Assembly: GCA_964349125.1 (NCBI GenBank)
Contig: CAYGFH010000005.1
Location: 38,211 to 98,735 of the forward strand
DNA length: 60,525 nt
Direction of reading: 5' to 3'
From: an uncultured Gammaproteobacteria bacterium
Lineage (GTDB): Bacteria; Patescibacteriota; Microgenomatia; UBA10105; UBA927
A model generated the notes under the pieces. That model ran no database searches. It saw nothing but the letters and a program-made list of their open reading frames with translations, and was not told where the DNA came from. Of this stretch, positions 3,621-60,525 are shown in pieces. How positions within the stretch are numbered: the first letter of the stretch is position 1; each line of letters starts with the position of its first letter. A program made the translations under genes and the position numbers.

Positions 3621-3993
3621 CTAGGCTAATTTCTGACTTATTTTCTTATAAATTGAGTTAAAGATTAAATGAAACTCAGTCGCTTCCTGCAAAAGCACAG
3701 GTATTTTAGGAGCACAGTCGGGGAGTGCTGTCATGAACATTCGAAGGAAGTGCTTAGTTTCCCTACTTCTTTTTTGCATATCCCAATTTTATGTCGGAAA
3801 TCAAGGCTACTTTCAGCATCATCAGCTTCACAATAGTTTGCGCCTATGCTCGTCCCCGATTTAACGAGTTGAACGATTAATGGTGTAGTGATCGGCGTTC
3901 GAGGGAGTGAATTGCAAAATTTATAATCTCTTCTCCGAATCTGGCAGTACTTTCTTCTAGATCGTATATTTTCTTTTTCTGTTCACCCGTCAT
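3621..3993 (-). pseudogene. Four-helix-bundle protein (23S rRNA-IVP/bAvd-like family) with two 1-nt frameshifts
   Basis: Joined frames give MTGEQKKKIYDLEESTARFGEEIINFA/PRTPITTPLIVQLVKSGTSIGANYCEADDAESSLDFRHKIGICKKE/RETKHFLRM...EFHLIFNSIYKKISQKLA*; SGTSIGANYxEA is the family signature. Confidence 0.85.
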
Positions 3994-4088
3994 ATTAGGT
4001 AATTAGAAATTAGGTTAATTAGATCAATTAGACGTTAGGTTTATTAGAACAATTAGACATTGATTAATTAGAGCTATTATACAACCCG

Positions 4089-16123: not shown

Positions 16124-18757
16124 TTAATTATTGCTCGAATCACGCCTAAATAGCACGGTAGATTCTATTTTTTTCGCCAAATCGAGCAGGAGTTGATGGT
16201 ACCAGGTAAATATTCGCATCCGGATCGAGCTGGGGAGTGCATAGAACGGGTCTTTACGCTTGTGGTACTCCGACATGACATCGTTATATGCTTTTTTTGA
16301 TCCAAAAAGAGTTTCCAACATGGAATACCTATGTTCAATAAACTGAATATGACGCCTAAAATTATAATCAGGGTCATCGAGCTTTTTGTGTATAAGGTCG
16401 TCCAGTGATCTGAATATTTGCCACTCAAGCTCATATACGCCGGAATCATCGTGCATCATATATCCATATTTTAACCATTGAAATGAGTCGCTATCTGATG
16501 CGGCGCTGCCGCCATCCTGAGGCTCTATAGTAAGGATTTTTGAAAATTTTTTATCCCATCGACCTTTCTCCAATGTGTGTTTTGGGTGCAGTGATGCCCG
16601 TCTTTCATCTAACTGATCATGAAATTTCACCAGTATTCGTTGTATTGCCCATACACTGAAGTAGTCGGCCATTTCTGAAAGGTGATCATTTGACAGGTGA
16701 GGGTATTCTTCGGAGAGCGCTTTTTTCCATGAATCTATGTCCAATGCCAGCATGAAGCCAAATTCATCTGTCATTTCACGCTCTGGATGCTCCAATATGC
16801 CCTGCGCAAGAAATTTTCTGTATCTGGAATACTTATCTTTTTCTCGCAGCGAGAAGAATATATCCACATCAAATTGGCTTACATCTATATCCCGAAATAC
16901 AGGATCAGTAAATTCGCCATCGTATGGACGTGATGAGCGGTCCGGGGGTATTGCGAGCAATTCTTTCGGGATATGATGCCTGGTGTATCTACCCCCCTCT
17001 ATAGTGATCGTCTCAACAGGCGCGCCGATGATTGCTTTTGCAGATTCTCTGATAGGTTTGATATGCAAGTTTGTTTTTACTCGAGCAGCCGCATCCACCC
17101 GATCCATGTGAAGTTCATGTACGAGCTTGCACAGGGCAGCAGCCCGTTCTGAAGCGTGCACAGGTTCATCTGCGTATTGATCTACTCCGAGTATAATCAT
17201 CATAAGTTCTCCAATTTCCGACGTGGATGTACCCAGCGGATCACCGTTGAGGCGATTAAGATTTTCCTTTGGAATTTTGTGTGAGAGTGCGAGGATTTCC
17301 TTTTCGATAAATTTATTGACTTCCCCGGATAAATACCCTAATTTTTCCGGATCACCTATTCGCCAAACTTCGGCTGATGTCGGATTGCAAAATCGTTTTG
17401 CCAGAGTTTTACCAACCTGCTCGTACGCCTTAAAATCACTAAATTCCAATTGTCTGTAGAGATTAAATTGCTCTAACAGCTGTGCATGCCACATATCATT
17501 TCTCGGATTTATCTCAAAAACATCACATATTGTATCGATAATATGCTTGAGTTCCGGGCATCTGCTGATGATGCTATATTCGTATGCACCCCAAGTCTCA
17601 ACCTGACTAATGGTATGCGCGAGTAGCAGAGGAAACTGAGGGCCCGCTTCTTTATAATACTCTGTCGTGATATCTAATTTGACTTGACGGACTGCCTCAT
17701 TCATTAACATAGTAAGCATAGATCGTTTTGCAATGCGCTCTTTCGTGACACCTCGTTTTGTGAGTGAAACAATTGTCTGTTCTGGGAATAGGGCAGGGCC
17801 AATAGGTGATAAGGGATTGAGTCGTTTTTCAATTTTTTGTATGAAACCTAATGTTTTGGACAAATCCCTCTGGGCTTCACTCTTCGTCGTAGGTTTTGGT
17901 GCTGCTATAAAATGGCGGATGCTACTGGTAAGCTCCGATTTACCAATTTTTGATAATTGGAGCAATCGAGATAAGACTTTCCTTTGTATAAACGATTCAT
18001 AAACATAGCTTTCCGTTTCGACCGTTTGGGTGAATTGATCCGGTGAATTGTAGAGTTGCACCCTGGCTTTTTTATGATTTTTCGTATCGCGGGATAAGCT
18101 GTCCACTATTGGGTAAAATTTACCGTCAATAGTGAGTCCATTATTGGCAAATAGCGTTGTCACTTGACTTGGCAGCAGTCCGACGACGTTTTGAAGTTTG
18201 TCTTTCGGGTCGAAATAATTGACTTTATCGTGTGGCGCGCCCTTTGCAATCACTAGGTGTGTGGTATTTTTTAACCGTCCTGGGGATTTTATATCAGGTA
18301 ATCGGGGATGATCAAAACTATATGTATATGAGGCATTTGGTGCGACATGCGCTTTGTGAGCATTTAAATGCACCTCATCAAATAGCTCTCGACGGGCTGT
18401 CTTCAATATTGTTTTTTCAGAGATGGGTTTTTCTGGATCTACTTTTATTCCGCCGCCTCCAGGCAAAATGAGCTGCTCAGGATTTACAACCGCCTTTCCG
18501 TTTGCTTTGATTTCCATCATGACGGTGGTCATCTGGGGCATGGCAGATGAGTGATCATGAAACAGCTCATGTTCCAGCGCGATACCGGTAGCGGCCGTAC
18601 CGGCAAGTATCGTGTCTATATTCCCGGGAGATGGGATCATTTGCGATTCGATCGTTGTCCCGTCCATTCTGTAAAGCGCGACACGAACTGTGTCCTGGTG
18701 GTACACATGTTCTGGTGATTTTCTATCTTCTTTATACTGTGATTCAAGTGCATTCAT
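16124..18757 (-). CDS. Nudix + RelA/SpoT-like nucleotidyltransferase fusion (~877 aa)
   Basis: Nudix box LPGGGG...ARRELFDEVH; RSH-synthetase-like motifs REKDKYSRYRK, DEFG and EWQIF. Confidence 0.7.
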   Translation of the reverse strand: MNALESQYKEDRKSPEHVYHQDTVRVALYRMDGTTIESQMIPSPGNIDTILAGTAATGIALEHELFHDHSSAMPQMTTVMMEIKANGKAVVNPEQLILPGGGGIKVDPEKPISEKTILKTARRELFDEVHLNAHKAHVAPNASYTYSFDHPRLPDIKSPGRLKNTTHLVIAKGAPHDKVNYFDPKDKLQNVVGLLPSQVTTLFANNGLTIDGKFYPIVDSLSRDTKNHKKARVQLYNSPDQFTQTVETESYVYESFIQRKVLSRLLQLSKIGKSELTSSIRHFIAAPKPTTKSEAQRDLSKTLGFIQKIEKRLNPLSPIGPALFPEQTIVSLTKRGVTKERIAKRSMLTMLMNEAVRQVKLDITTEYYKEAGPQFPLLLAHTISQVETWGAYEYSIISRCPELKHIIDTICDVFEINPRNDMWHAQLLEQFNLYRQLEFSDFKAYEQVGKTLAKRFCNPTSAEVWRIGDPEKLGYLSGEVNKFIEKEILALSHKIPKENLNRLNGDPLGTSTSEIGELMMIILGVDQYADEPVHASERAAALCKLVHELHMDRVDAAARVKTNLHIKPIRESAKAIIGAPVETITIEGGRYTRHHIPKELLAIPPDRSSRPYDGEFTDPVFRDIDVSQFDVDIFFSLREKDKYSRYRKFLAQGILEHPEREMTDEFGFMLALDIDSWKKALSEEYPHLSNDHLSEMADYFSVWAIQRILVKFHDQLDERRASLHPKHTLEKGRWDKKFSKILTIEPQDGGSAASDSDSFQWLKYGYMMHDDSGVYELEWQIFRSLDDLIHKKLDDPDYNFRRHIQFIEHRYSMLETLFGSKKAYNDVMSEYHKRKDPFYALPSSIRMRIFTWYHQLLLDLAKKIESTVLFRRDSSNN

Positions 18758-18830
18758 AATTGACACGTCGCCTACGCGACATAGTTCCTTCTAAGCTCAT
18801 TCATATGAATGAATTCGCTAAGTAGTCACT

Positions 18831-18852
18831 AAAAAACCCGCTTATCGCGGGT
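18831..18852 (-). terminator. Intrinsic terminator (attenuator C:D hairpin) upstream of the Nudix-RSH gene
   Basis: Minus strand ACCCGC-GAUAA-GCGGGU followed by U-tract. Confidence 0.75.
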
Positions 18853-18884
18853 GTAATTTATAAGGTTTTATGATTCCTATTCCA

Positions 18885-18953
18885 TTACACCCTCGACCCA
18901 TCCCAAAGAAGGGCTGGTTTTCGTGTAATAAAATGGACGACGAATTGATTCAT
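18885..18953 (-). CDS. Putative attenuator leader peptide MNQFVVHFITRKPALLWDGSRV*
   Basis: TACTAT 7 nt upstream; stop codon lies inside the antiterminator strand (18884..18892). Confidence 0.6.
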   Translation of the reverse strand: MNQFVVHFITRKPALLWDGSRV

Positions 18954-19009
18954 AAAACTCATAGTAATGTATCACACATATTTGAAATATGTCAACTCTT
19001 TGTCATAAC

Positions 19010-19038: not shown

Positions 19039-19318
19039 GCGTATGGATGGGCTGTAAAAACGATAAAACCCCACTTTTTCAAATTGAATCAATGGGGCTT
19101 TAATCACGTATTTCTTTTTTTAAGCAGTGTTACCGTGTGGGGGAGATGTCTCAATCCCGACGTATGTCGGGACTAGGAAAACTCCCACACACACAGATAT
19201 TAATACTTAGTCAAATTGAATTGACTATTTTTTCCTGCAGGTTCATGTGTCTGGAAGTTTTTTCAGTGTCCGAAAGTTAGCTCTCGAGGGCGAATCGAAA
19301 ATATCTTTCGGGTTGGGT

Positions 19319-19756
19319 TTATTGTTGGGTTGCTTCTGGCGTAACTTTGAAAATAGTGCCAATCAAAGCTAATATCCCAGTGACTGTAACCAGAACGGTG
19401 TAAGCCAGCATAATCCAGCCATCCGCAACTTGAAATTCAGCGAGTTCATGAATTCCAAATGGGGTAACCTGAGTGACTAACACCATGCCAGTTGCCAAGG
19501 TTACAAAACCCATAACACCAACTAAAACTCTTGCGATTATCGGAGTTTGAGAATTGTTGAGCCAAGGGCTCATTGCCAAAAGCATGCCTAACGTACAGCC
19601 AAGAGTGTAGGAGAACATATAGTTTGTGCCACCGCTGACTGAAAACCAAACAGCATCTTCAGTCCACGCATTCACTGCGGTTTGAGCGGACCAAAGAAAT
19701 GCAAATGACAAAACTAACCCGGCTACTGTCACAAGCAATCTACCTAAATTCTTCAT
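19319..19756 (-). CDS. Four-TM membrane protein
   Basis: Four hydrophobic helices; strong SD AAAGGAGGTA. Confidence 0.85.
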   Translation of the reverse strand: MKNLGRLLVTVAGLVLSFAFLWSAQTAVNAWTEDAVWFSVSGGTNYMFSYTLGCTLGMLLAMSPWLNNSQTPIIARVLVGVMGFVTLATGMVLVTQVTPFGIHELAEFQVADGWIMLAYTVLVTVTGILALIGTIFKVTPEATQQ

Positions 19757-20066
19757 GGTCTACCTCCTTTCTTTATCATGATCTTCATCAGTCGCCCGAG
19801 GCACAGCCTCTCTCCAAAGCTGATGAAGTGTCAGATCGCATCCGTGGCGTATGGCTGTCCCAGCCGCCTGCGATCGGGGTCAAAGATGACCTGTGTGAAA
19901 AAGAAGAAGGTCATCTTCTGTTTCATTCAGGCCACCTATGTCAAAAAGGAGTGTTCTGCAGAAAATTGGTAATGTGCAATATAAAAAATACGTATTGATA
20001 CAAAGCCGCAAATGGCCATATTCAACGAATAGAGTATAACACTATAAGCTATATATATCAAACCAA

Positions 20067-20140
20067 GGACACGTCGCTCACGCGACATATGTGGCAGTAC
20101 GCCTTGCTCAGGCTTAGGCTACTGCCACAAAAAAATCCCT
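20067..20140. repeat. Dispersed repeat GGACACGTCGCT...ATATGTGGCAGTACGCC...AAAAATCCCT, copy 1
   Basis: First 37 nt nearly identical to 21032..21068 and both copies end in AAAAATCCCT; partial copy at 18762..18783. Confidence 0.8.
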
Positions 20141-20200
20141 AGATCAGTCAGACGCGTTTGCCTGAGATATAAGGATTTATGTTTGTTCGTATCTTATCTT

Positions 20201-20286
20201 TTTCTACAACGCGTTAATTGAAACAATCAACCCCGATACAATCGGGATCAACGCAATTGATTGCTTCAGAAAGAGCGTTGTAGAAA
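20201..20286. repeat. Long REP/MITE-like imperfect palindrome
   Basis: Ends TTTCTACAACGC / GCGTTGTAGAAA with a central CCCCGA-TACAA-TCGGG hairpin. Confidence 0.75.
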
Positions 20287-20466
20287 TAGGTGAAAGGGTC
20301 ATATGAAATGGATTGTCTGCACGATTGCAGCAAAAGTTTCATAGTTTTTTTCAGCTATTTTTTTGGGGAATCCGACGTTTGTCAGATTACGCTCAAGTTC
20401 ACCTTCTCCGGCGCAAAACCAAGAATTATCATCTTGGCTGAAGGATGCAAGACCGGAGAAGGGAGG

Positions 20467-20539
20467 CGGGGATGGCAGGACTCGAACCTACAACCGCTGC
20501 ATTTAAAGTGCAGTATTCTGCCAATTGAACTACATCCCC
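20467..20539 (-). tRNA. tRNA with anticodon UUA (ochre-suppressor type), Trp-like body, no encoded CCA
   Basis: GGGGATG TA GTTC AATTGGCA GAAT A CTGCA CT-TTA-AA TGCAG CGGTT GTAGG TTCGAGT CCTGC CATCCCC G; all four stems pair. Confidence 0.9.
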
Positions 20540-20552
20540 GAACTTAAGAAGA

Positions 20553-20627
20553 CCACACTTCCCAATGGATTCATTCCTCGGAGGACCCGATGAATCCAAA
20601 GCTACCGTTATAACTCGGGAAGTGTGG
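20553..20627 (-). ncRNA. Structured spacer element between the two atypical tRNAs
   Basis: 11-bp stem CCACACTTCCC/GGGAAGTGTGG enclosing a 9-bp stem TGGATTCAT/ATGAATCCA and a small TCCT/AGGA hairpin. Confidence 0.55.
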
Positions 20628-20630
20628 AGG

Positions 20631-20702
20631 TGCCCACGGAAGGATTTGAACCTCCGCTCTTTGCACGGTGAGTGCAATGCTCAACGACTGAGCTGCGTGG
20701 GC
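20631..20702 (-). tRNA. Atypical tRNA(CAC), Val-like or pseudo-tRNA
   Basis: GCCCACG CA GCTC AGTCGTT GAGC A TTGCA CT-CAC-CG TGCAA AGAGC GGAGG TTCAAAT CCTTC CGTGGGC A; C8, no D-loop GG and C37 are non-canonical. Confidence 0.7.
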
Positions 20703-20949
20703 AAGAACTGTGCCTTTTTTCTATCTACCCCCCCCCAACAAAAAGAAAGATACAGATACAAACAACAAAAAAGCTATCTGTTGCTTGTGTCTGTATCTTC
20801 ATCTGATGATGTAAACGTGCAAAAACGAACGTTTTGAGAGTGTATCATAAACGATCAGTATTTCGCAATCTATTCTTTATTTCTCTGACATGTCTCTTGC
20901 GGATATTTGTGGCACAGCGCGCCCCAAAATTCTTGTTAATACCTATTTC

Positions 20950-20975
20950 GCTATCATGTAACGGTACATGATAGC
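20950..20975. repeat. Palindrome GCTATCATG-N8-CATGATAGC, copy 2
   Basis: Matches 6916..6941; extends to tatttc...gaaata (20944..20981). Confidence 0.8.
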
Positions 20976-21031
20976 GAAATACTGAAACTGTCCACATGTC
21001 AAATATACGGAATCAGATAGTAATCTATTAT

Positions 21032-21160
21032 GGACACGTCGCTTGCGCCACATATGTGGCAGTACGCCAAGGAGTGCAATGTATCCAGCTTTGCCGGATA
21101 GTGCCTCGTACGCCTTTTCTCTATGAATCGAACGGGCTACGATTGCACTAAAAAATCCCT
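21032..21160. repeat. Dispersed repeat, copy 2, with an internal insertion flanked by GTACGCC duplication
   Basis: Same ends as 20067..20140; GTACGCC at 21062 and 21107. Confidence 0.75.
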
Positions 21161-21306
21161 CGGGAGTTCAACGCAAATGTTGAATCTCGGGGGACTTAAT
21201 TACGGTCTCGCAAAGGGGGATTGGATCAACCCCGATTAAATCGGGACTGAGTAAAACCCCCTTTCTTCTAAATTGTTGTATTGCACTAACCGCCGGTTCA
21301 CGCCTG

Positions 21307-21813
21307 TTACACATCCACTTTCTCAGGTGGAGGAATTTTGGGAACTTTTTCCCGTTCAAAAAAATGCCGTTCCGCCCAAGGAAACAATGACCAGAACAAA
21401 ACGTTACCCAGCACAAATGGAAGATCAATTAGCATAAGTAACGCAGGGAGCACTGCTGATGCTACAAACGCGCTGATTGTGTTTTTCGGCTTCGCTGTAA
21501 TTCCAGTTGAATGATTCCAACTAAAACCCAGGTAATACGCACCTATGAAGCCGGATAGTATGCCAGCGATGAGCCTGTTAATTCCTGCAGTTTCCATAGA
21601 GACGAACGTGAGAAATACCGCGATCAAAAAGGCGAGTATCTGTTCGATGTTCGCAGTATTTTGATCATCATCGTATCTGGTGATCCTCCTTTCCTTTTTG
21701 CTCTTCATTCTTGATACGGCGACAAGCAAGTTTCCAAAAATCGCCAGAAGGCTTGCCAGAACTGCTAAAACTGCGAGCCATTCGTGCCAGTTCGATGGAT
21801 ATTGAATTACCAT
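21307..21813 (-). CDS. Membrane protein, hypothetical
   Basis: Several TM segments; closely coupled to the upstream ORF. Confidence 0.8.
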   Translation of the reverse strand: MVIQYPSNWHEWLAVLAVLASLLAIFGNLLVAVSRMKSKKERRITRYDDDQNTANIEQILAFLIAVFLTFVSMETAGINRLIAGILSGFIGAYYLGFSWNHSTGITAKPKNTISAFVASAVLPALLMLIDLPFVLGNVLFWSLFPWAERHFFEREKVPKIPPPEKVDV

Positions 21814-21815
21814 GA

Positions 21816-22064
21816 TTACCTCTGCATTCTGCTTAGTGCTTTACCAATCAGCCAGCACCCTCCGATTGGGGCTATAAGACAACAAGTCCCTACACCAAGA
21901 ACGAGTAAGGTTTGAATAACTGATGGGAGGTTAGCCATTGCATTCCTCCTTATTCCGGACGCACGCCGAAATACTTGAGCGTGCCGAACTTGGGCGCTTC
22001 TAACAAAATAACTATGACGATGCCTGCGCCTGTTGCGACGAGCAAAAATTTCCACCATGGCCAT
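21816..22064 (-). CDS. Small basic membrane protein
   Basis: Arg-rich N-terminus, one TM, AAAGGAG upstream. Confidence 0.65.
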   Translation of the reverse strand: MAMVEIFARRNRRRHRHSYFVRSAQVRHAQVFRRASGIRRNAMANLPSVIQTLLVLGVGTCCLIAPIGGCWLIGKALSRMQR

Positions 22065-22558
22065 CTCGTTTTCATCTTATTTCGATTCTCCTTTCGTTTC
22101 TAAGATGATATTCCAAAAAAATAGTCAATCCACGTTCGTTGGCTATTTTTCATGGAATACCATGTGAATCCAGTTAGAAAATTGCGTTACAACAATGTCA
22201 AGGTGCTAAGCACCGCAGTCCCGTAGCATCGCTCTTCCAATAGAGAAGTAAGATGTTAGCGGGGCAATGTGCGAGACTTTTGGGATTATAGCAAAATGCA
22301 TCGGGTTTTGTGAAACATCCTGTCTGGTAGCTTCAAACAAAAAGGGCACTTATTACTATAAGCCTTTCTATGGTATAATACAGAGGCAATCTTTGGCAGA
22401 AGCGCCAAAACGATTGTTTTTTGCACGTTTACATCCCCCATATTACAGAACTACCATTCTGTTGTCGCGCGCATTTGGGATACATACTACATGTATTTCA
22501 ACTGTGCGCGACACACAATTTTCAATTCTATTTAAACAGTAAAGGAAAAAGAGTAATC

Positions 22559-22882
22559 ATGTCAAAGAGAAGAATGGTAATAAGAACTGGTTTGGACCAA
22601 AAGAATGTAGACTACGTAATAGAAACCGCGGTTTCAGTAATGGGAATCATTACTGGGAAAATCGGGGACAATGTACTTGAGTTCACATGCAAAAGTGATG
22701 TACCCGCAGACGAAATGTATCTTACATTTGAATTCGGTCTCACTAGAGGTGCCTCAACTTTCCTCACAACGTACGAGGAGATTTTCGCGAATGTTGGTTG
22801 GGACTTTGGTGAGCTGGAAATCATTCGTGAGGATGATATTCCAGAGTCTGCAATTTCGCAGATAGAACTCAAGTTGCAATAA
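22559..22882 (+). CDS. Small acidic hypothetical protein (107 aa; start MSKRRMV)
   Basis: AAGGA upstream; downstream hairpin tggccgttatt/gtaatggcca. Confidence 0.75.
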   Translation: MSKRRMVIRTGLDQKNVDYVIETAVSVMGIITGKIGDNVLEFTCKSDVPADEMYLTFEFGLTRGASTFLTTYEEIFANVGWDFGELEIIREDDIPESAISQIELKLQ

Positions 22883-23905: not shown

Positions 23906-23933
23906 TTGACATTTCATATGTTTGGAGTATGAT
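23906..23933 (+). promoter_or_regulatory. sigma70-type promoter of the attenuated right operon
   Basis: TTGACA-N16-TATGAT. Confidence 0.7.
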
Positions 23934-23967
23934 GTCCTATAAAACGCCAAAGCTTTGGCAAAATACC

Positions 23968-24021
23968 ATGAAATCATTCGCCGTAACAAAATTTATTATT
24001 ACAGACCTTCATTTTGAGTAG
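23968..24021 (+). CDS. Putative attenuator leader peptide MKSFAVTKFIITDLHFE*
   Basis: TAG overlaps the antiterminator strand 24020..24032; N-terminus resembles the 18885..18953 leader. Confidence 0.6.
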   Translation: MKSFAVTKFIITDLHFE

Positions 24022-24057
24022 GTTTGTGTTTGCGTATGTAATGAGTTACTCAAACAC

Positions 24058-24084
24058 AAACCTCCAGCAAATGGAGGTTTTTTT
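24058..24084 (+). terminator. Intrinsic terminator (attenuator C:D hairpin)
   Basis: AAACCTCCA-GCAAA-TGGAGGTTT followed by TTTT, 25 nt before the first operon gene. Confidence 0.85.
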
Positions 24085-24109
24085 GTGGAAGCAAAAGAAA
24101 TGAATATCT

Positions 24110-24706
24110 ATGAATAAAGAGATACCGGAACGTTCATTTATGATCACTGGCGTGCCTTCTGTAGGGAAGACGGAGCTCTCGCGTGAACTGTATAAACTGC
24201 AAGACTTTATACCACATCCGCCATATACAACTCGCCCACTCAGAGTAAATGAGTGTTCCTCAGATATGCGTAGCATCACAGAAGAAGAATTTCTGAATTT
24301 ATATGCACTTCGTCGTCTCATAGAGGGTGAACTTAATATTCCATACGAACGAACGGGATATTTGGGAAAACGATATGGTTCGCCTGTTGACTGGATGGTT
24401 GTGGAAACGCATATGCATGCAGCAATAGGATTTGTATCGTTTAGTACGTTAATTGCGTCCGTCGTCAAGCGCTCTGTTGGGGAAAACGTTGCATGGATTC
24501 ATCTTACTGCAAATGAACAGGTGCGTCGGATCAGGCTTGCTGAACGAAAAATTCCGGAAGAGGAAATAACCCGCAGATTAGCAAATACAGATGGAGATAG
24601 TCATGCATATTTTGATGCAGCTGATCTTGTTGTAGATACCTCATCTATTTCATTAACTGATGAAGCGTCGATGGTTCTCTCGTATATCAATCGTGCTTCC
24701 ATTTAA
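24110..24706 (+). CDS. Guanylate-kinase-like P-loop kinase
   Basis: TGVPSVGKT P-loop, YTTRPLRVNE and YGSP motifs. Confidence 0.85.
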   Translation: MNKEIPERSFMITGVPSVGKTELSRELYKLQDFIPHPPYTTRPLRVNECSSDMRSITEEEFLNLYALRRLIEGELNIPYERTGYLGKRYGSPVDWMVVETHMHAAIGFVSFSTLIASVVKRSVGENVAWIHLTANEQVRRIRLAERKIPEEEITRRLANTDGDSHAYFDAADLVVDTSSISLTDEASMVLSYINRASI

Positions 24707-57326: not shown

Positions 57327-60300
57327 ATGAACCGAATAACGCATATGATGATTCGACTTGGCATGATGCCTGTGTTCGTGCTGCTATTACTCATTATCGT
57401 GGGGAGTATTGTTCACACGATTTGGGGTGGGGCATTTCAGGCTATATCACGTACAAAATCATCTTTGACATCTAAGAATCATCCCTCAAATACCTATGAA
57501 GTAACCACTGTCGACAAAACAACTCTTGAGAAAAGTTCGTTTTCCGGACCGTTTATCGTATCAATTCTCAGAAAAGATGGATCTTTTTCCTATGCTGTTG
57601 TCCTGTCTGCAGATTTAATTGGAGATGCATTCCTCGGAGATATCACGGTTCAATTCCCCAACGGAGACATGGGTGAGGTGACCGAGAGTAGTGGAAATGT
57701 CGAGCTATTTCTCACGAAAAAAGGTAACCGTGAGTCTGTTACTATAGTAGATCGGTTACTATCCGGAATTGTATTGCCTGATGATTCGATATTGCCGGTA
57801 AAGTTTAAAGATGCAACAATTCGTGATGGTAGGCTCGTTGGAAATTTTCAGTTATATGCGTTCGCAGATAAAAAGAAAGTAATCGGGAATTTCTCTTCAC
57901 GGGGCGATCTGTTGAGTCTACAAGTTACACCCAGCCTCGCAACGCTTGATTCAACATCTTTATTAGTTACCCGTGAGTTATTAAAGCTGATTTATGCCCG
58001 TTCAAGCGAATCAGAGCAAAACGTATTGGGTATTACTTCGGAAAATGCCACTGTAATCGGATCGGATTCGACACAAATTAGCATAGGATCTATTTCGTCG
58101 TCAATTGTGGCGCGTAGGGATGATGAAGAAGGTACCGTACGACTTTTTCAGCAGGCGCTTCCGGGTATTTCACAATCCGTAGCAATAGAGAGCTTAACAC
58201 CCGGACTTGAAGTCATTCAAAACAACGGAGTTACACAAATCCGTATCACAGCTCTTGATGCAATAACCGTAGCGGGTGGAATAGGCGCGACAGGTGCTTC
58301 CGGTATTGCCGGAGCAACCGGAGAGCGAGGGCCGGCCGGAGAGGATGGAGCAGATGGTTCTGGTTCAGGAGGAAGTTCGAGTGGCACAACAGGTGTATCC
58401 GGTCCGACAGGGGAAACTGGCGCAACAGGAGTAGCTGGCGCATCAGGTCCAACTGGTGCAAGCGGAATTCAGGGAGCTACAGGTATGACTGGTTCGACGG
58501 GAATTCAGGGAACATCCGGTCCAACCGGTGGCACAGGCACAAATGGTCCGACGGGCGCTACGGGTGCAACAGGTCTGGCTGGTATTGCGGGAGCGACTGG
58601 CGCTTCAGGAATCACCGGTCCATCTGGCTCAACTGGTGCGCAAGGTGCTACAGGAGTGTCAGGCGCAACGGGGGCTTCCGGATCGATCGGTATAACGGGA
58701 CCGACAGGATCCACGGGGACAACTGGCATCACAGGTGTATCAGGTGCCACCGGATCGACAGGTGAAATTGGCAGTTCGGGGCCAACAGGCGCTACAGGAA
58801 GCACGGGTACAAATGGTGTTCAAGGCCCGACGGGAAGTACAGGATCAACGGGTGTTGAGGGGCCTACCGGATCGTCCGGCAGTACCGGAGTCTTGGGTCC
58901 TACCGGAGCGACGGGGGGCACCGGTATTGCAGGTGGCGGTGGGTATGGCCCGACGGGATCAACAGGCGCAACAGGAACTCAAGGTACTGCAGGGGCAACA
59001 GGATCAACGGGAGATGTGGGCCCGACAGGAAGCTCAGGAGCCACAGGGTCAACCGGTATACAGGGCCCGACAGGGATGACGGGAACAACGGGAATAAATG
59101 GTCCGACGGGTGCAACGGGTGGCACAGGTGTCGCCGGTGGTGGCGGTATGGGTCCGACGGGCAGTACTGGTGCATCTGGACAGGGTGGTGTGACAGGATC
59201 GACAGGAGTTATCGGAGAGACAGGGCCGACAGGATCGACCGGATCAAGTGGTGTTGCAGGTCCGACAGGGAGCACAGGATCTACCGGTTTGGCGGGTACA
59301 AGTGGTCCGACAGGCAGTACTGGTGCATCGGGACTGGGTGGCGTGACGGGAGCGACGGGAGTTATAGGAGAGACAGGGCCTACAGGATCGACCGGATCAA
59401 GCGGTGTTGCCGGGCCAACAGGAAGTACGGGATCTACAGGTTTGGCTGGTACAAGTGGTCCGACGGGTGCCACAGGGTCAACCGGTACTGTCGGCGCATC
59501 AGGGCCGACGGGAGCAACAGGTGCAACCGGCGGGATAGGAGAAACAGGCCCGACAGGCAGTACGGGCGCAACAGGAAGTATCGGGGCATCGGGTCCGACC
59601 GGTACGACGGGGACCACCGGAGCAAACGGCCCGACGGGAGCAACGGGAGGCACGGGAATAGCAGGTGGCGGCGGATACGGTCCGACAGGCGCAACGGGAG
59701 GTACAGGTACAGAAGGTGTACAAGGCGTCACGGGAGCTACCGGCTCAACAGGGTCCGTAGGTTCCAACGGTCCGACCGGAGATACAGGATCAACCGGTAC
59801 TCAGGGTCCGACCGGTACCACGGGGACCACAGGGACAAACGGCCCGACGGGAGCAACGGGTGGTACAGGAATAGCAGGCGGCGGAGGAATGGGGCCCACA
59901 GGGTCTACAGGCACGACAGGAGTCGCAGGTCCTACAGGATCCACGGGAGCAACAGGTATTGATGGATCCTCAGGTCCGACGGGATCATCAGGAGCTACTG
60001 GTGGTACTGGGGCAGTCGGTATAAGTGGTCCGACAGGAAATACAGGCGCAACGGGTACAAATGGTGTTCAGGGACCGACCGGTGCAACCGGTCCGACAGG
60101 TCAGACTAACGGTCCTACAGGCTCAACAGGAGGCACCGGGTCGGCAGGAGAAACGGGACCGACTGGAGCCACGGGTGGAACGGGTGCAATTGGAACCACG
60201 GGTCCAACTGGCGCTACAGGAGCTTCAGGTGTAATTGGACAGACAGGGCCTACAGGTGCCTCCGGAGCGACAGGATCAGTCGGAGTAACAGGTCCAACGG

Positions 60301-60525
60301 GAGCAACGGGTGGTACAGGCTCAGTAGGAATCACGGGTCCATCGGGAGCAACAGGCTCCTCTGGGGCTATTGGACAGACAGGGCCTACGGGTGCCTCTGG
60401 AGCTACAGGATCAGTTGGGTTGACAGGTCCGACAGGAGCAACAGGCTCCACGGGTTCAATAGGAATTACCGGTCCAACGGGAGCAACGGGTGGTACAGGC
60501 TCAGTAGGAATCACGGGTCCATCGG
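57327..60525 (+). CDS. Giant collagen-like (G-X-T) surface protein, 3'-truncated by the window end (>1066 aa)
   Basis: Manually translated open frame from ATG 57327 (signal/[16 protein letters not shown]) into G-X-T/S triplets from ~58284 to the window end; absent from the ORF track because no stop is present. Confidence 0.92.

Follow-up and report, generated by a model that had tools for sequence, protein, structure and literature searches.

A tRNA gene with the anticodon UUA, complementary to the stop codon UAA, lies on the minus strand at positions 20467-20539 of a 60,525-nucleotide (nt) stretch of bacterial DNA (contig CAYGFH010000005.1 of assembly GCA_964349125.1, positions 38,211 to 98,735; referred to as the window). 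The gene, named tRNA-2 here, is genuine and belongs to what appears from sequence comparison to be an accessory, lineage-restricted non-coding RNA operon (the cassette) of bacteria of the Candidate Phyla Radiation (CPR). We read the UUA tRNA as a natural, probably conditionally expressed nonsense suppressor and consider the chance that this reading is correct to be about even. The genome has a size of 1.61 Mb in 8 contigs and is 97.7% complete; the window is located on contig 5. It was compared with a genome of the same genus (G001), a third species of the genus (G002), a genome of another genus of the same family (G031) and a Logan contig from run SRR11476867 (L082).

The UUA tRNA gene

tRNA-2 was called by ARAGORN at 20465-20539(-) with the anticodon tta at position 34, and the Rfam model RF00005 matched 20467-20539(-) from end to end (70.9 bits, E = 1.7e-13; gathering score 29). 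The RNA reads GGGGAUG-UA-GUUC-AAUUGGCA-GAAU-A-CUGCA-CUUUAAA-UGCAG in its 5' part and CGGUU-GUAGG-UUCGAGU-CCUGC-CAUCCCC-G in its 3' part. This gives an acceptor stem GGGGAUG/CAUCCCC, a D stem GUUC/GAAU, an anticodon stem CUGCA/UGCAG, an anticodon loop C32 U33 U34 U35 A36 A37 A38 and a T loop UUCGAGU. All 21 of 21 standard pairs are formed, U8, A14, G18G19, U33, A37 and G73 are present, and the stems of 7, 4, 5 and 5 bp, the 7-nt anticodon loop and the canonical residues are those of the RF00005 family. U34 U35 A36 is complementary to UAA, which makes this the anticodon of an ochre suppressor. By score the gene is in the top five of the 45 Rfam tRNA matches in the genome, and it is the sole tRNA with a stop anticodon among the 43 ARAGORN and 45 Rfam matches in 1.6 Mb. 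The original prediction of an intact tRNA with all stems paired and the anticodon UUA at 20506..20504 was therefore confirmed by both programs. The anticodon was also found in a second assembly from another sample (ERZ27247817, locus L059), which is 100% identical over window positions 19300-22100 (2,801 bases). Because this independent assembly is identical around tRNA-2, an assembly artefact is unlikely.

Other classes of unusual tRNA were compared by their geometry. tRNA-Sec is defined by the anticodon UCA, 8/5 or 9/4 geometry, a 6-bp D stem and a long variable arm, and tRNA-Pyl by the anticodon CUA, a 3-nt variable loop and a small D loop; tRNA-2 has canonical geometry and is neither of the two. 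It is not an allo-tRNA either, having a 7-bp acceptor stem, a 5-bp T stem and a 5-nt variable loop in contrast to the 8/4 or 9/3 geometry and long arm of that class. Those cassette relatives of tRNA-2 that carry UCA were labelled 'SeC' by ARAGORN; since the standard tRNA model covers them from one end to the other, the label reflects the UCA anticodon alone. Running ARAGORN in intron mode returned noise only.

No CCA is encoded by tRNA-2, in which G73 is directly followed by CCUCC. This pentamer never follows a housekeeping tRNA gene of the genome; those genes mostly continue with N73-CA. The full CCA is encoded by only about 11 of 43 housekeeping tRNA genes of this genome, and most have N73-C-A instead.

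Genetic code and tRNA complement of the genome

The stop codons of all open reading frames (ORFs) of ≥ 250 amino acids (AA) (n = 862) are TAA in 465 cases (54%), TGA in 232 and TAG in 165, in line with the earlier observation that many genes here end in TAA. ORF statistics are consistent with the standard code. Two class-I release factor genes (PCRF-domain), presumably encoding RF1 and RF2, were found in each of this genome, G001, G002 and G031. As TAA is the main stop and interrupts no coding ORF, and as the genome has both release factor genes, this codon is not reassigned in the genome, just as had been claimed.

An ordinary tRNA-Trp(CCA) is encoded on contig 4. Using ARAGORN and Rfam, no tRNA-Phe, -Cys, -Gly(GCC), -Gln(UUG), -Leu(CAA) or -Ile(GAU) was detected in the assembly and only one of three expected CAU tRNAs was; the missing genes probably sit in unassembled tRNA or rRNA clusters.

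Architecture of the cassette

tRNA-2 is the second gene of a non-coding operon of about 0.75 kb, which lies between diverged direct repeats approximately 1 kb apart (Table 1). Both tRNAs are located in a 1.5-kb stretch without a convincing ORF, flanked by two small membrane-protein genes. On the minus strand, the order of elements is: promoter-like box, leader hairpin with U run and G9, tRNA-1, CCUCC, a 75-nt branched hairpin, tRNA-2, CCUCC, a 63-nt hairpin, about 100 nt of variable sequence and a structured 3' module with an intrinsic terminator.

Table 1. Positions of the cassette elements and of surrounding features in the window.
Feature	Position	Strand	Evidence or remark
Upstream repeat copy: A (21225-21246), B (21146-21160), C (21032-21068)	21032..21246	-	repeat families D1, D2, D4
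Promoter-like box, extended -10 type TATGATACACT, and conserved leader start	20808..20849	-	~90% identical to G001
Terminator-like leader hairpin, ~22 bp, A/U-rich (20747-20799), U-rich run, G9 run	20728..20799	-	inverted repeat I2; fold z = -4.5
tRNA-1, apparently Val(CAC)-derived, degenerate core, A73, then CCUCC	20631..20702	-	ARAGORN; Rfam 56.2 bits
Long branched hairpin right after tRNA-1, base CCACACUUCCC/GGGAAGUGUGG	20553..20627	-	-37.7 kcal/mol, z = -4.6
tRNA-2, class-I tRNA, anticodon UUA (20506..20504), G73	20467..20539	-	ARAGORN, Rfam, pairing, second assembly
Long hairpin right after tRNA-2, motif GCAUCCUNCA	20402..20464	-	-31.5 kcal/mol, z = -4.4
Structured 3' module: 22-mer ACAACGCNCTTTCTGAAGCAAT (20260-20281) at base of long hairpin, then terminator	20124..20296	-	consensus fold
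Downstream repeat copy: A' (20226-20247), B' (20126-20140), C' (20067-20103)	20067..20247	-	repeat search
σ70-like promoter TTGATA-17-TATACT of 145-AA membrane-protein gene	20033-20061	-	promoter scan; 10/12 matches
Left leader-peptide ORF, before 880-AA gene, then intrinsic terminator	~18885-18953 (region 18830-18960)	-	ends TAA
Right leader-peptide ORF, before kinase/phosphoribosyltransferase (PRTase)-TrpF operon, then intrinsic terminator	~23930-24020 (region 23906-24117)	+	ends TAG

The TATGATACACT box is a putative promoter; L082 has TGTGGTATAAT at this position. The leader hairpin, which is not picked up by a simple terminator scan, is found with compensated changes and the U run in both G001 and L082, and equivalents of the hairpin behind tRNA-1 with compensated stems are likewise present in G001 (z = -6.3) and L082. 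In a three-way alignment, the motif GCAUCCUNCA is invariant across all three cassettes. Leader and trailer hairpins fold far better than shuffled sequences, with z values of -4.4 to -4.6 in this genome and down to -6.3 when G001 is included. The best conserved part of the cassette is the 3' module, whose consensus fold comprises 43 pairs (-43.7 kcal/mol) and whose intrinsic terminator, with a U run, is situated at about 20128-20179. Among 85 loci, its 22-mer is confined to the three lineages with a cassette. A small ORF spanning the 22-mer (YNALSEAIN) was rejected as coding, because it lacks a common start and the frame is not conserved on its flanks.

The first tRNA of the operon has C8, a D loop AGUCGUUG without GG dinucleotide, and C37 G38. 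It is 77-78% identical to the true tRNA-Val(CAC) of other genera, from which it differs at U8, in the D loop and at A37, and by this likeness it appears to descend from tRNA-Val(CAC); the genome has a separate housekeeping Val(CAC) on contig C3. Because U8, the D-loop GG and A37 have been lost, tRNA-1 may no longer decode well.

Of the repeat blocks, A is a small hairpin, B a terminator end and C a 37-nt element with the palindrome GCCACATATGTGGC. Blocks A and B and the full 37-nt block C occur in the genome in these two copies only. The layout of downstream repeat and promoter is repeated in G001 across the overlapping ends of its contigs C14 and C34.

Distribution and anticodons of related cassettes

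A DNA search of 40 relatives gave a single same-locus match, in G001. The G001 cassette aligns block for block, including the flanks, promoter-like box, leader hairpin, U run, trailer hairpins and 3' module. A third cassette, on L082, was reached by walking out from the conserved neighbouring membrane protein. Related loci were collected via the 294-AA and 880-AA proteins (n = 11), and L082 alone among them carries the cassette; it is absent from the ten others, from G002 and from all other genomes of the order, being confined to this genome and G001 among the 87 examined. The three related CPR lineages that have the cassette carry it at the same variable hotspot of the chromosome. BLAST of tRNA-2 against 60 relatives returned generic tRNA matches only (Phe, Lys, Asp, Pro), and the pattern CTGCAYTNNNAATGCAG found nothing but unrelated tRNAs and one coding-sequence match in 401 genomes of the class. 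For the tRNA-2 pattern and block C, no match was obtained in metagenome contigs and only G001 in the genome collection.

The anticodons in slots 1 and 2 are CAC and UUA in this genome, UUA (66 bits) and UCA (62 bits) in G001, and UCA (A1-U72, G73; 63.9 bits) and CAU (60.3 bits) in L082. Stop-reading anticodons are therefore present in four of six cassette tRNAs, twice for UAA and twice for UGA. The slot-2 tRNA of G001 is the positional orthologue of tRNA-2, with 79% identity; acceptor strand GGGGAUG, anticodon stem, G73 and the trailer CCUC are common to both, and its UCA is one transition away from UUA. The original prediction had proposed to look for CPR orthologues retaining TTA: UUA is indeed present in G001, yet in slot 1, and the positional orthologue has UCA, which is also a stop-reading anticodon.

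A strict pattern for UUA tRNAs was matched in only three of the 87 genomes of the order (this genome, G001 and G031), without false positives. In the G031 gene (L007 1390-1466; 62.6 bits), the anticodon arm has either a stem of 6 bp or a loop of 9 nt (UCUUUAAAA); position 73 is A, and the trailer is CCUC. The gene is located 27 nt after tRNA-Asp in a His/Ile/Asp cluster and represents an independent stop-anticodon tRNA in the same family.

Evolution and parentage of the cassette tRNAs

In all four cassette tRNAs of this genome and G001, 21 of 21 pairs are intact. Positional orthologues differ by double compensatory changes, two in slot 2 and seven in slot 1, and no pair is broken. This conservation of pairing is found at sequence identities of 79% (slot 2) and 58% (slot 1), compared to 94.5% for the housekeeping tRNA-Lys(CUU) and 100% for tRNA-Arg(UCG) of the same two genomes. 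The loops of the stop-reading tRNAs are nearly identical (CUUUAAA, CUUUAGA and twice UUUCAAA) despite differing stems and acceptors. The cloverleaf fold of the cassette tRNAs thus appears to be under selection. The reading of stop codons, too, looks selected rather than accidental, because relatives of this fast-evolving cassette carry other stop-reading anticodons.

A resemblance of tRNA-2 to tRNA-Trp, which had been noticed originally, appears not to be specific: identity to the tRNA-Trp(CCA) of this genome is only 60%, which puts it in 14th place among the genome's tRNAs; tRNA-Pro(UGG) comes first with 71%. A tRNA-Phe(GAA) of another genus (G018) is 83% identical over 60 nt, a likeness that turned out to be non-diagnostic. 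None of the cassette tRNAs is specifically near any housekeeping tRNA of the genome. Initiator-tRNA features (C1xA72, three G-C pairs in the anticodon stem) were absent on inspection.

Of the traits of tRNA-Trp, G73 is present in tRNA-2, but the first pair is G1-C72 instead of A1-U72 and the anticodon is UUA. Among the UCA relatives, the G001 orthologue has G73 and the L082 tRNA has both A1-U72 and G73, and a path CCA to UCA to UUA is conceivable for this reason; the same two tRNAs bear out the view that UUA is no trivial slip from Trp. Given the single transition between UUA and the UCA of the orthologue, and an outgroup tRNA with UCA, G73 and A1-U72, the data suggest an opal-type ancestor, possibly Trp-accepting, which turned ochre in this species. 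A Trp-type opal suppressor with a later C35 to U change would fit G73 and A36-A37-A38, if weakly.

In G001, a 345-AA class-II synthetase-like protein is encoded about 5 kb from the cassette (L062 5843-6880). It has AsnA/AsnRS-core-like motifs and no anticodon-binding domain, and there is no counterpart near the cassette of this genome.

Suppression as the favoured reading

If tRNA-2 is a nonsense suppressor, it would be transcribed at a low or conditional level, because the leader hairpin would have to be read through; the combination of a terminator-like leader and a missing genomic footprint suggests the same. The transcript would be trimmed by RNase P and a 3' endonuclease, the CCA end would be added by the CCA-adding enzyme, and the tRNA would be charged by some synthetase of the cell. 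At UAA and, through wobble, at UAG, the charged UUA tRNA would then be a competitor of RF1 and RF2, and C-terminally extended proteins would result. No dedicated target gene for the UUA tRNA was found in the genome; the expected effect is a global low-level or conditional read-through and not the recoding of a single gene.

Several observations weigh against suppression. Two of the six cassette tRNAs have sense anticodons (CAC, CAU), and the CAC tRNA of this genome lacks U8, the D-loop GG and R37; given these members, the framework accepts tRNAs that are not suppressors and that possibly do not decode. With only three lineages known, the statistics on anticodons are thin and in part not independent. 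A UUA tRNA active at the main stop codon should be costly. The search for TAA-interrupted coding ORFs in the genome returned nine candidates with coding potential on either side of the stop, all of which were adjacent genes, with an ATG within 1-4 codons after the stop in eight of the nine. Likewise, backup stops are not enriched after TAA in the genome, i.e. there is no sign of adaptation to read-through: in-frame values are 0.21 (5 codons) and 0.37 (10 codons), out-of-frame values 0.19-0.21 and 0.38-0.39. Finally, no extra class-Ib synthetase was found; each genome of the genus has only TyrRS and a long TrpRS (633 AA in this genome), whether it carries the cassette or not.

Competing explanations

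The most serious competitor, which we nevertheless consider unlikely, is that the tRNA units act as processing handles or scaffolds for the hairpin RNAs and the 3' RNA as the actual products, the anticodon UUA having no translational meaning. It would account for the best conservation being found in non-tRNA parts (22-mer, 3' module, GCAUCCUNCA, leader), for tRNA bodies that look exchangeable (a Val(CAC)-derived slot 1 in this genome, CAU in slot 2 of L082), for the loss of decoding or tertiary positions (C8, the D-loop GG and C37 in tRNA-1; A8 in the slot-2 tRNA of G001) and for the missing footprint. Unconstrained anticodons, however, would not yield four stop readers out of six with near-identical YUUYARA loops, the UUA tRNA itself is fully canonical and high-scoring, and decoding is compatible with a role in processing. 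Neutral decay, i.e. redundant tRNA copies drifting and UUA being a recent C35-to-U change in a UCA or sense tRNA, seems improbable to us. The damaged partner tRNA(CAC), the single transition from the anticodon of the orthologue and the lack of a target or genomic footprint are what decay would predict; it does not predict that every stem pair was kept by compensation while unpaired sites changed at 8 of 31 and 18 of 31 positions, that the UUA tRNA is canonical throughout or that stop anticodons recur in all three lineages. That UUA is a sense anticodon altered by an assembly or sequencing error is imaginable, as several expected sense tRNAs went undetected in this metagenome-assembled genome. 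This explanation is extremely improbable in view of two assemblies from different samples being identical over 2.8 kb and of the stop anticodons in orthologues of two other lineages; moreover, no one-base change turns UUA into the anticodon of a tRNA with a similar body. Taken together, the sequences appear to exclude an artefact and a reassigned code, and simple decay is unlikely.

We also give little credence to the cassette serving, or being a relic or cargo of, a mobile element or phage with recoded stops, to which it would supply readers of UGA and UAA together with Met and Val tRNAs of the kind found in phage tRNA sets. Suppressor tRNAs are carried by recoded phages, including a patescibacterial phage with tRNA-Sup(UCA) and tRNA-Met(CAU) (bioRxiv 10.1101/2024.03.08.584096), and the variable hotspot, the diverged direct repeats and the patchy presence (3 of about 10 close lineages) would agree with mobility. 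On the other hand, the ten neighbouring proteins match no defence or mobile-element family (PADLOC: none) and most match no family at all; the only phage-family (PHROG) match is guanylate-kinase-like, with none to structural or replication genes, which upholds the original description of the gene as chromosomal. Neither the cassette tRNA nor the 22-mer has a match in 2.9 million viral contigs (IMG/VR), no region of the genome has TAA-interrupted coding ORFs, and TGA-recoding candidates were mostly reverse-strand shadow frames of GC-rich collagen-like repeats. tRNA-2 does not qualify as a phage-borne suppressor, and the synteny in three lineages points to vertical inheritance of the cassette. 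Even less probable, in our estimate, is a switch in which the UUA tRNA reads the TAA and TAG of two leader ORFs so that ribosomes cross the terminators behind them and turn on the 880-AA gene and the kinase/PRTase operon. Both leaders exist, with TAA and TAG just upstream of intrinsic terminators, and their read-through frames span these terminators. Nevertheless, L079 keeps the left leader, the terminator and TAA without a cassette at the locus, L076 has TGA, and in L082, with UCA and CAU and hence no UAA reader, the leader ends in TAA and already spans the terminator. Owing to these mismatches, the leader stop does not track the suppressor anticodon. Independently of its function, the left leader is kept in three relatives (L083, L079 and L076) with the stop TAA, TAA or TGA.

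Further observations in the window and the genome

Between the cassette terminator and the 145-AA gene, approximately 440 nt (window 19752-20195(-)) are apparently non-coding and 81% identical to C34 of G001 (L039/L048), and the proteins encoded downstream (145 AA here, 74 AA in G001) are not recognisably alike. This stretch, which has no Rfam match at E ≤ 1, may be a long structured 5' untranslated region (UTR) or a separate RNA.

The leader of the tRNA operon at 20808-20825(-) is copied at 22418-22435(+) as a perfect 18-nt match, TTTTTGCACGTTTACATC, extending to about 28 nt with mismatches. The copy is located in the 5' UTR of a divergent 107-AA gene (22559-22882), after a promoter-like box TGGTATAAT and before a GC-rich hairpin. 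TTTTTGCACGTTTACATC occurs at these two sites of the genome only, which hints at shared regulation; the 107-AA gene is absent from G001. The 168-AA protein, another neighbour, had no homologues in the searches.

At 20944-20981, block C and the promoter-like box are separated by an inserted 38-nt perfect palindrome, TATTTCGCTATCATGTA-CCGT-TACATGATAGCGAAATA. G001 lacks it at this site, and related copies on C2, on C5, in G001 and in G008 make it part of a small family of dispersed palindromic repeats. The motif ATATGTCGCGnnAGCGACGTGTC, a small hairpin (GUCGC...GCGAC), is found repeatedly between genes in this clade, with sites at 18755-18785, 20067-20103 and 21032-21068 of the window and at L079 12760-12900. 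One copy is placed directly between the Shine-Dalgarno-like AGGAA and the start of the 880-AA gene.

Elsewhere in the genome, roughly 60 nt ahead of the intact tRNA-Pro(UGG) gene, there is a second copy of its 5' half and of some of its upstream flank (C7:3890-3914 and 3974-4048), which resembles an insertion or recombination scar at a tRNA. A tRNA-like sequence at C3:104212-104283 (Rfam 37.8 bits, not called by ARAGORN) combines a His-like GUG loop with an aberrant T arm. Collagen-like repeat genes rich in GC (55-59%) are located in the window at 57327-60524, at C2:10-22 kb, C2:78-100 kb and C1:840 kb. Their reverse strand forms long PVxPVEPVGP 'ORFs' broken by TGA alone, which could mimic TGA recoding.

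Significance

Where the standard code is in use, natural tRNAs that read stops are usually dismissed as annotation noise, phage cargo or laboratory mutants. An inherited cassette with UUA and UCA orthologues, whose fold is kept under rapid divergence, argues that selection maintains stop read-through in a free-standing bacterial genome. A literature search found no description of stop-reading tRNAs in CPR bacteria with the standard code. Were the tRNA active, the meaning of stop codons would be conditional in these ultra-small bacteria; the cassette would be a natural example of a tRNA lineage shifting between opal and ochre specificity, and could perhaps provide compact scaffolds for suppressor tRNAs that bring their own regulatory leader. 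Should the tRNAs serve solely as processing handles, the cassette would still be an undescribed non-coding RNA operon.

All six cassette anticodons read either stops (UAA, UGA) or the start-type codons AUG and GUG. A bolder and, to our mind, rather doubtful extension is that the CPR lineage keeps a dedicated, regulated 'punctuation-decoding' RNA operon, in which a fixed framework (leader terminator, processing hairpins, conserved 3' RNA) is combined with swapped tRNA bodies and retuned anticodons, and whose induction would globally reprogramme translation ends. Such an operon would represent a natural, inherited and switchable change of stop-codon meaning in a standard-code bacterium, and would perhaps alter the reading of AUG and GUG too, e.g. 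in a stress, dormancy or abortive-infection response.

Comparison with known systems

The classical ochre suppressors of Escherichia coli are UUA mutants of tRNA-Gln, -Lys and -Tyr (supB, supG/L, supC/M). As in these, tRNA-2 is a class-I tRNA with the anticodon UUA, which would compete with release factors for UAA and, through wobble, for UAG under the standard code. In contrast to these laboratory-selected mutants of housekeeping genes, tRNA-2 occurs naturally as an additional gene, part of a conserved cassette that has its own leader, and no close parent is found among the housekeeping tRNAs (≤ 71% identity).

Small RNAs linked to tRNAs are known from the 3' external transcribed spacers of tRNA operons in E. 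coli and from the tRNA-like/pre-miRNA units of murine gammaherpesvirus 68. The cassette resembles them in its tandem units of a tRNA and an immediately following stable hairpin. These systems involve ordinary tRNAs or uncharged mimics, whereas the cassette has conserved stop-reading anticodons, which to our knowledge none of them has.

UAG is reassigned in some recoded phages. The recoded phages described in bioRxiv 10.1101/2024.03.08.584096 reassign UGA, and the tRNA pair of a patescibacterial phage has been mentioned above. The stop-reading anticodon is common to tRNA-2 and such suppressor tRNAs, and the UCA and CAU of the cassette family recall phage tRNA sets. Unlike these, tRNA-2 is chromosomal and syntenic in three lineages, has no phage genes nearby, belongs to a standard-code host and has UAA as its target.

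The trn operon of Anabaena and other L-arrays are accessory tRNA operons, repressed by default and induced under certain conditions, which comprise 20-40 sense tRNAs duplicating existing anticodons under the control of a protein repressor (PMC8421152, PMC10272220). The cassette is likewise an accessory tRNA operon apart from the housekeeping set, for which regulation is suggested by the leader. It differs in having two tRNAs, mostly stop readers across the three lineages, behind a terminator-like leader.

The irregular tRNAs or allo-tRNAs of Acidobacteria are natural accessory tRNAs with diverse, shifting anticodons including UAA readers, and are sometimes polycistronic (Mukai et al. 2017, PMC5389517). 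They have been proposed to act in nonsense or missense suppression or as regulatory RNAs. In E. coli, suppressor activity is known for natural accessory tRNAs that read UAA or have other odd anticodons, and allo-tRNAs are toxic there when over-expressed (PMC5389517). The cassette tRNAs resemble them as natural, accessory tRNAs with shifting anticodons, among them UAA readers. Allo-tRNAs have an 8/4 or 9/3 acceptor/T-stem, long variable arms and Ser or Ala identity (PMC5389517), whereas tRNA-2 is a canonical 7/5 class-I tRNA with a 5-nt variable loop, found in a CPR host and embedded in a framework of hairpins.

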